From the IMG/VR virus record IMGVR_UViG_2660238318_000012: 16,061 nucleotides of DNA; one strand, 5' to 3'. The DNA is from a virus (Duplodnaviria > Heunggongvirae > Uroviricota > Caudoviricetes). The notes beneath the pieces are model-generated. The model was not told the origin of the DNA. It saw only the letters and a list, made by a program, of their open reading frames with translations, and did not search any database. Positions 14,740 to 14,790 of this stretch are shown here, piece by piece. The first letter of the stretch is position 1, and each line of letters starts with the position of its first letter. The position numbers and the translations under genes are program-made.

Positions 14740-14790
14740 TTGTTCGTAGTTGTTCCGCATTGTTGCTCATTGTTGCACGTTGTATCTGTT
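14740..14790 (-). repeat. Five TTGTT repeats at exact 10-bp phasing (AACAA on the gene strand), site C, just downstream of int
   Basis: TTGTT at 14740, 14750, 14760, 14770 and TTGTA at 14780. Confidence 0.45.

Follow-up and report, generated by a model that had tools for sequence, protein, structure and literature searches.

A phased TTGTT array between int and alpA of a capsid-forming PICI is a candidate AlpA operator

Between the integrase gene int and the regulatory gene alpA of the island described here, a five-base motif recurs at steps of exactly 10 bp. Which protein reads these repeats, and what does it control? The window, by which we mean the whole 16,061-nucleotide stretch of DNA that was analyzed (IMG/VR record IMGVR_UViG_2660238318_000012), starts with phoQ (1-1461, + strand) and continues into an island whose genes all lie on the - strand. 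These include int, alpA, a DUF4222 gene, a gene for a D5-type primase (12295-10547), and an HK97-type module encoding capsid, protease, portal, connector, HNH, and terminase proteins; the island also contains iteron-like repeats. The island, which follows phoQ, belongs with the capsid-forming PICIs of the EcCICFT073/EcCIEDL933 kind. As homology with island-free E. coli ends at 1469, we placed the att core across the phoQ stop codon (Table 1), and the same 10-mer is found at the other junction in a homologous locus, L002. Close relatives in complete E. coli genomes carry corresponding annotations and occupy sites at phoQ-roxA, tqsA, yifB, smrA/abgR, and allC/allE. AlpA is the master switch of Gram-negative PICIs, including EcCICFT073 and those of the capsid-forming EcCIEDL933 type, and is required for their induction, excision, and transfer. 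The papers we searched disagree on its role, described as activation, excision, or the two combined.

On the + strand, TTGTT begins at 14740, 14750, 14760, and 14770, and TTGTA begins at 14780, giving four exact units and one degenerate unit (array C). Along the int-to-alpA direction, the units read AACAA. The array ends 48 bp from the int stop codon, and 283 bp separate it from the GTG start of alpA downstream. We searched the window for three units at 10 bp, allowing at most one mismatch, and obtained five matches compared to 0.01 expected from 200 shuffles. Three of these matches overlap within array C, and the other two, arrays A and B, are on the opposite strand. Tandem Repeats Finder reported a 10-bp period at 14750-14783, within array C, and Rfam returned nothing above threshold in 14200-14900. 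The original prediction of five TTGTT units in exact 10-bp phase, the last degenerate, was thus borne out in every detail by the sequence. Its placement of the array just after the int stop and about 290 bp upstream of alpA agrees with the distances we measured, and array C does run opposite to arrays A and B.

Table 1. Features of the island and its att region. Positions refer to the window except where another locus is named.
Feature	Position	Strand	Sequence and remarks
att core	1460..1469		AAATATGTCC; island/chromosome junction, overlaps phoQ stop codon
IHF consensus, attR arm	1484..1496	-	AATCAATGACTTG; consensus match, between att core and Int doublets
Doubled 12-bp motif	1538..1561	-	GGTGTAGTCAAT GGTGTAGTTAAT; candidate Int arm-type sites, attR arm
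Array A	1580..1604	-	TTGTGTCTAT TTGTTCCACG TTGTT; attR arm, 111-135 bp from att core
Array B	9056..9080	-	TTGTTCGTGG TTGTTCCACG TTGTT; fourth TTGT 11 bp upstream
alpA	14269..14457	-	62-aa winged-helix protein; Pfam PF05930 Phage_AlpA, E 5e-18; GTG start; candidate array binder
Sigma-70-like promoter	14519..14547	-	TTGCCA-17-CACAAT, TG before -10; consensus match only
Hairpin	14617..14645	-	12-bp stem, then UUUGUAUU; -13.8 kcal/mol, z -3.64; between array C and alpA promoter
IHF consensus, int-alpA spacer	14703..14715	+	AATCAGCTACTTA (WATCARNNNNTTR); consensus match, 24 bp from alpA-proximal end of array C
Array C	14740..14784	+	TTGTTCGTAG TTGTTCCGCA TTGTTGCTCA TTGTTGCACG TTGTA; 5 head-to-tail units, 10-bp period
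int	14832..16061	-	P4-type tyrosine integrase, N-terminal arm-DNA-binding domain; PF13356 (E 5e-18), PF00589
Array D	outside window; L002 32609-32642	opposite to array C	attL arm, upstream of int, seen in homologues

For comparison, we assembled 62 loci, 669 kb in total, whose AlpA is of the window's type; they were taken from complete E. coli genomes, from IMG/VR contigs that a search with Int had retrieved, and from the window itself. A search of genome contigs with AlpA gave three loci, of which two were distant. Bare TTGTT x4 proved an unspecific pattern in viral contigs: it returned 120 stretches, and only five loci among them turned out to be PICIs. Using the strict criterion of exact ACAA x3 at 10 bp, array C was present in 61 of the 62 related loci; thus, the comparison with homologous islands that had been proposed as a check found the array both retained and phased. 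Among 48 unique int-alpA spacers, the number of units ranges from three to six and is mostly five or six. Across the 237 units in these spacers, positions of the ACAA core carry 1.96-2.0 bits each, compared to 0.3-0.5 bits at spacer positions. Successive exact AACAA motifs are 10 bp apart in 105 cases, 20 bp in 21, and 30 bp in one, and the array-to-alpA distance stays within the narrow range of 272-297 bp. In lineages whose spacers are 77-80% identical, units have been gained or lost on the int side, and the alpA-proximal end of the array keeps its distance to the next conserved block. As the ACAA core is invariant, the intervening positions vary, and the 10-bp phase is maintained, the alignments show the pattern that selection leaves when it acts on a short core and its helical phase.

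Arrays of this type are restricted in location. In 11 loci of 16-35 kb, exact TTGT x3 at 10 bp occurs in only four kinds of place: the attR arm (array A), the attL arm (array D), upstream of the capsid operon (array B), and the int-alpA spacer (array C). The same restriction held in the 62 loci, with one extra match in 669 kb, and we found no TTGT arrays in the ~200 kb of flanking chromosome that we scanned. Array A is near-identical in all related islands, irrespective of integration site, and lies 19 bp from the doubled 12-bp motif. In homologues, array D has the same layout and likewise adjoins a copy of this motif. Array B follows a terminator (9104-9121) and is ~215 bp upstream of the capsid gene start, within a 45-bp block, TTTTGTAAATTATTTGTTCGTGGTTGTTCCA(C/G)GTTG, that is invariant across two lineages with flanks that are only ~50% alike. 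It is confined to islands with the HK97-type capsid/packaging module. All four arrays share one ending, TTGTTNCACGTTGTW, and array C is inverted relative to arrays A, B, and D. Directly downstream of arrays B and C, we detected no convincing sigma-70 promoter; the -10-like hexamers there are weak or unconserved. The arrays are unchanged across three unrelated replication modules, which encode a D5-type primase, a RepA helicase, or a DUF927 protein.

AlpA and Int are the only DNA-binding proteins common to all these islands. An AF2 model of AlpA is a winged helix (pLDDT 86.6), and the best matching PDB folds are the GIsul2 excisionase 8C3T (TM 0.83/0.90, 38% identity), RdfS, Pukovnik Xis, TorI, and BldC. 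Our literature search found no paper citing 8C3T. RDF operators consist of direct repeats one helix turn apart (PMC7498355). Array C comprises five co-oriented TTGT(T) units, and its repeats have the 10-11 bp spacing and the three or more adjacent sites of such operators. The same repeats recur in the att arms beside the Int arm sites (arrays A and D), and the element itself encodes a small winged-helix, RDF-like protein, AlpA.

Published reporter assays bear on this match. In EcCICFT073, AlpA expressed from pBAD activates PalpA-lacZ, a measured positive feedback on its own gene, and leaves Pint-lacZ unaffected; AlpA overexpression results in excision and replication of the island, and helper phages switch on alpA transcription via a phage factor (Fillol-Salom et al., PMC6092414). 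EcCICFT073 has the same Int and AlpA accessions as our locus L007, with an AlpA that is 95% identical to that of the window, and it occupies the same phoQ/roxA site and carries a six-unit array. We mapped the primers used to construct the reporters. The PalpA-lacZ insert (pJP2038; CFT073 1379127-1379582) corresponds to L222 7128-7583, a 456-bp fragment that extends to alpA codon 19 and contains the entire array (7188-7241), and the Pint-lacZ insert (~5623-6469) contains array D and the doublets. Given the published activation, AlpA acts on an array-containing 456-bp fragment in the absence of any other island protein. The AlpA target could lie elsewhere in this responsive fragment.

The spacer holds several other conserved elements. 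Along the direction of transcription, the int stop codon and the 48 bp that follow it are succeeded by array C, 24 bp, an IHF consensus, a hairpin, a promoter-like element, a Shine-Dalgarno sequence, and alpA. Of the 48 unique spacers, 47 contain the IHF consensus, at a distance to the array end that is 24-26 bp in every case; 0.014 would be expected by chance, and the consensus occurs there in eight variants at the unconstrained NNNN/R positions. Since the consensus is fixed beside array C and another lies in the attR arm, the array C module resembles, at the sequence level, an att arm without Int sites. We also noted two conserved copies of AAAAATCAG (CTGATTTTT on the - strand) within 14684-14712, which start at 14687 and 14703, 16 bp apart; the copy farther from the promoter falls within the IHF consensus.

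The hairpin lies in a block that is conserved in the spacer alignment. A simple terminator scan did not flag it; with its U-rich tail, it could terminate int transcripts or attenuate transcripts that start close to the array. The sigma-70-like element is the only promoter-like element conserved upstream of alpA. Its TTTGCCA is invariant and CTGACACAAT is kept in seven of eight diverged spacers, and weak -10-like hexamers nearer array C are unconserved. Relative to this element, array C is at ~-195 to -240, compared to ~-40 to -90 for class I/II sites, and would thus be too far away for ordinary class I/II activation from this candidate promoter.

On balance, we favor a reading in which array C is a cooperative AlpA operator that is paired with the conserved IHF consensus, serves alpA autoactivation, and is one of four AlpA arrays. 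One AlpA monomer would bind each TTGT core. As the cores lie on one face of the DNA at successive helix turns, the monomers would form a head-to-tail, cooperative, DNA-bending filament, as for the RDFs Apl, Cox, lambda Xis, and RdfS. The att-arm arrays, which abut the doubled Int sites, would allow AlpA to act as an excision factor, and array B would place the capsid operon of capsid-forming islands under AlpA control. Array C, together with the IHF site, would confer threshold-like positive feedback on alpA. Cooperative binding by an excisionase-like or AlpA-like protein had been proposed for this array; the architecture, the distribution over att arms and regulatory regions, the AlpA fold, and the reporter content support the proposal; AlpA contact with the repeats, its cooperativity, the occupancy of the IHF site, and the promoter that is driven are inferences. 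The independence of the arrays from the replication module, and the fact that Int is accounted for by the doublets (see below), also argue for AlpA.

If the arrays are AlpA operators, they provide a four-site map of AlpA action, with sites at attL and attR, ahead of alpA, and at the capsid operon. Such a map would explain both AlpA activities by one binding mode and would tell AlpA sites apart from Int arm sites, a distinction that the work on helper-embedded PICIs did not draw. A stronger version, which we regard as a long shot, is that array C and its fixed IHF consensus form an att-arm-like nucleoprotein module that was recruited as a distant enhancer, with identical arrays licensing excision, amplifying alpA, and switching on the capsid/packaging operon. 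In a bolder variant, a helper-phage excisionase would also read the arrays, making prophage excision the signal for satellite induction.

Several observations weigh against an AlpA operator. Int and AlpA types co-segregate in 89 loci: Int proteins that are at least 84% identical accompany the window-type AlpA, Int of ~77% identity goes with a 49%-identical AlpA, and an exact AlpA sequence always adjoins the same Int family, so that covariation cannot cleanly separate the two binders. The att arms of islands with the 49%-identical AlpA still contain TTGTTCG arrays. Array C has the opposite orientation to the other three, a terminator-like hairpin lies downstream of it, and the conserved promoter is ~195-240 bp away. 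Finally, the Pint-lacZ reporter contains the attL array, yet AlpA was without effect on it.

The doubled 12-bp motif bears on which of the two proteins is the binder. Its consensus is GGTGTAGT(T/C)AAT x2, and the single occurrence in the window is that in the attR arm. Homologues have a second copy upstream of int (L002 32576-32599), and in the reconstructed attP, the doublet centers are at ~-80 and ~+137 from the core. The P4 record annotates a doubled 12-bp 'attP arm sequence repeat' at ~-75 and +134. Helper-embedded PICIs carry a doubled attP motif, tgTGTATTGCa x2, at -81 and +132, and which of Int and AlpA binds it was left undecided by the authors (PMC10111431). These PICIs belong to the same element family, and their doublet has the same geometry as the GGTGTAGTTAAT doublets; it corresponds to the 12-bp doublets and not to the TTGTT arrays, and that study does not describe 10-bp arrays or their presence at alpA and the capsid operon (PMC10111431). 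In islands at tqsA/pntB, the doublet is GGTGTAGTCACT x2 in both arms, each of the four copies having TCACT in place of TTAAT, and the N-terminal strand of Int is SVKYLTSGKL versus SVRHSTSGLL. AlpA from these islands is 100% identical to that of the window, and the TTGTT arrays are unchanged. Since the doublet changes with the Int N-terminal domain while AlpA stays identical, the doubled GGTGTAGTTAAT motifs are probably Int arm sites. As these doublets already give an Int tetramer its four arm sites, the 10-bp arrays call for another binder.

These data speak against a further part of the original prediction, that array C might be an Int arm-type site. The units would then be extra arm-type sites for the Int N-terminal domain, used for example in Int autoregulation or as an accessory recombination site. 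Such a role would fit the arm-DNA-binding domain of Int, the presence of the same arrays in both att arms, and the persistence of TTGTTCG arrays where AlpA is 49% but Int 77% identical. However, the Int arm motif is a different sequence, laid out as in P4 and absent beside array C, and the arrays neither match it nor covary with the Int N-terminal domain, remaining constant when domain and doublet change. Moreover, array C lies beyond int at ~1.4 kb from the attL core, compared to ~150 bp or less for an att arm; an array upstream of the capsid operon would be senseless for Int; and the reporter containing array C responds to AlpA without Int. We consider Int as the reader of the array very improbable. 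A reading that we rate as unlikely, but less so, keeps AlpA as the binder and has it act on int or on recombination rather than on alpA transcription. AlpA could, for example, loop out int by pairing array C with the inverted attL array, or it could stop transcription that reads through from int; the array might also be an accessory site or a sink that sets how much AlpA excision requires. The inversion of array C with respect to the attL array across int, its position upstream of a terminator-like hairpin instead of beside a promoter, and its pairing with an IHF consensus, as in att arms, are consistent with this, as is the precedent of the RDFs Apl and RdfS, for which att-like arrays likewise serve to regulate int or the gene of the RDF itself. 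In EcCICFT073, however, AlpA had no effect on Pint-lacZ and the array C fragment responded positively, and the tightly kept distance between array and alpA also counts against this reading.

A protein from outside the island could also read the array, either a helper-phage factor, conceivably a phage excisionase, or a host regulator of the OmpR/PhoB type. A PICI AlpA-like protein and a phage Xis have been reported to engage in cross-talk (PMC11773190). Moreover, it is a helper-phage factor that switches on alpA transcription. Winged-helix response regulators also bind direct repeats of 10-11 bp, which would suit a host protein. The boxes of TorR, PhoP, OmpR, and ArcA have cores or 11-bp periods that differ from TTGT at 10 bp; we rejected these four candidates because they misfit the invariant core and its period and because the chromosome flanks are array-free. 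Against any outside protein stand the lack of arrays in the ~200 kb of flanking chromosome scanned, the abutment of arrays on Int sites in the att arms, which is the classical place of an element's own RDF, the variation of the array core with island family (TTGT here, GTTCG or GTTCA elsewhere), and the ability of AlpA alone to activate the fragment in a phage-free host; we judge this reading to be distinctly improbable. Scarcely credible, in our assessment, is that the units are replication iterons or a purely structural curved-DNA element, like the 'ori type 2 repeats' of P4. The P4 precedent consists of GCTTTAAGTG x3, located 146-175 bp upstream of vis and annotated as part of ori. Array C, however, does not covary with the initiator: the arrays are constant whichever of three unrelated replication proteins the island encodes, and there is a distinct iteron cluster elsewhere, downstream of pri (10304-10555). 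An invariant 4-nt core with free spacers points to base-specific recognition and not to curvature.

Direct-repeat operators of dual-function excisionases are already well known, and the literature we searched contained no definition of PICI AlpA operators. The closest parallels are Apl and Cox. Apl of phage 186 has five operators at attP and seven at pR-pL, and at least three are needed for binding (PMC7498355). Like the island system proposed here, Apl and Cox are small monomeric DNA-binding proteins that recognize short direct repeats, one per helix turn, bind cooperatively and bend DNA, and in the case of Apl one motif serves both the att site and promoters (PMC7498355). Apl and the Cox proteins of P2/HP1 repress switch promoters, whereas EcCICFT073 AlpA activates its own expression. 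The island arrays also differ in lying in both att arms and before the capsid operon, and AlpA belongs to the Phage_AlpA winged-helix family, for which repeat binding is predicted here. The lambda Xis filament (X1-X1.5-X2), Pukovnik Xis, BldC, and RdfS resemble the predicted arrangement in that winged helices bind head to tail, each turn of the DNA taking one protomer. RdfS, which recognizes both attP and the promoter of its own gene (PMC11963761), lacks a clear consensus motif, in contrast to the invariant 4-nt core of the island arrays; lambda Xis binds one arm only and is not known to activate its own gene.

P4 Vis is an AlpA homologue, and the P4 record describes it as 'excisionase and transcriptional regulator'. 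P4 resembles the island in having doubled 12-bp Int arm sites in both arms at the same distances from the core, and its three tandem 10-bp GCTTTAAGTG repeats (L223 9176-9205), upstream of vis, recall array C in position. The P4 repeats differ in sequence (GGGGGCA arm sites and GCTTTAAGTG tandem repeats), and vis is not adjacent to int. We found no TTGTT-type arrays in the P4 att arms. AlpA of Pseudomonas aeruginosa shares with the island protein only its name and a positive action near a promoter with a downstream terminator. It is 21Q-like, makes contacts through R128-H142, and binds as one molecule to a single GGGACG between -35 and -10 (PMC9371919). As it is a much larger and unrelated Q-like antiterminator, we rejected it as a model.

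Other parts of the island were also of note. The capsid gene (~7683-8843, - strand) has an in-frame premature stop at 8013-8015, reading NAV*VVN compared to NAVWVVN in the intact L001 homologue; judging from this sequence, the window's copy of the island probably cannot make its own capsid. The portal gene appears to be split (5814..6104 and 6101..7069). Immediately downstream of the primase gene, short tandem repeats, among them CCTTATCTA and GGTAGACAG, cluster at 10304-10555 and are probably the replication origin of the island.

Finally, more divergent islands differ in the region between int and alpA. In those with the 49%-identical AlpA (L010 14280-14320 and 14490-14545; L186-L210), CGAAC is repeated three to four times with a 10-bp period 110-150 bp upstream of alpA, and a separate AATATCG/AAGTTCG repeat with an 11-bp period lies just after int; their att arms retain the TTGTTCG arrays. 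For more distant AlpA homologues, we found no equivalent array in the int-alpA region. In distant relatives (L228 2380-2420; L185), an extra gene of 257-302 aa separates int from alpA, and upstream of alpA a pair of GTGATATCAC palindromes takes the place of the direct-repeat array, an arrangement that suggests repressor-controlled alpA.
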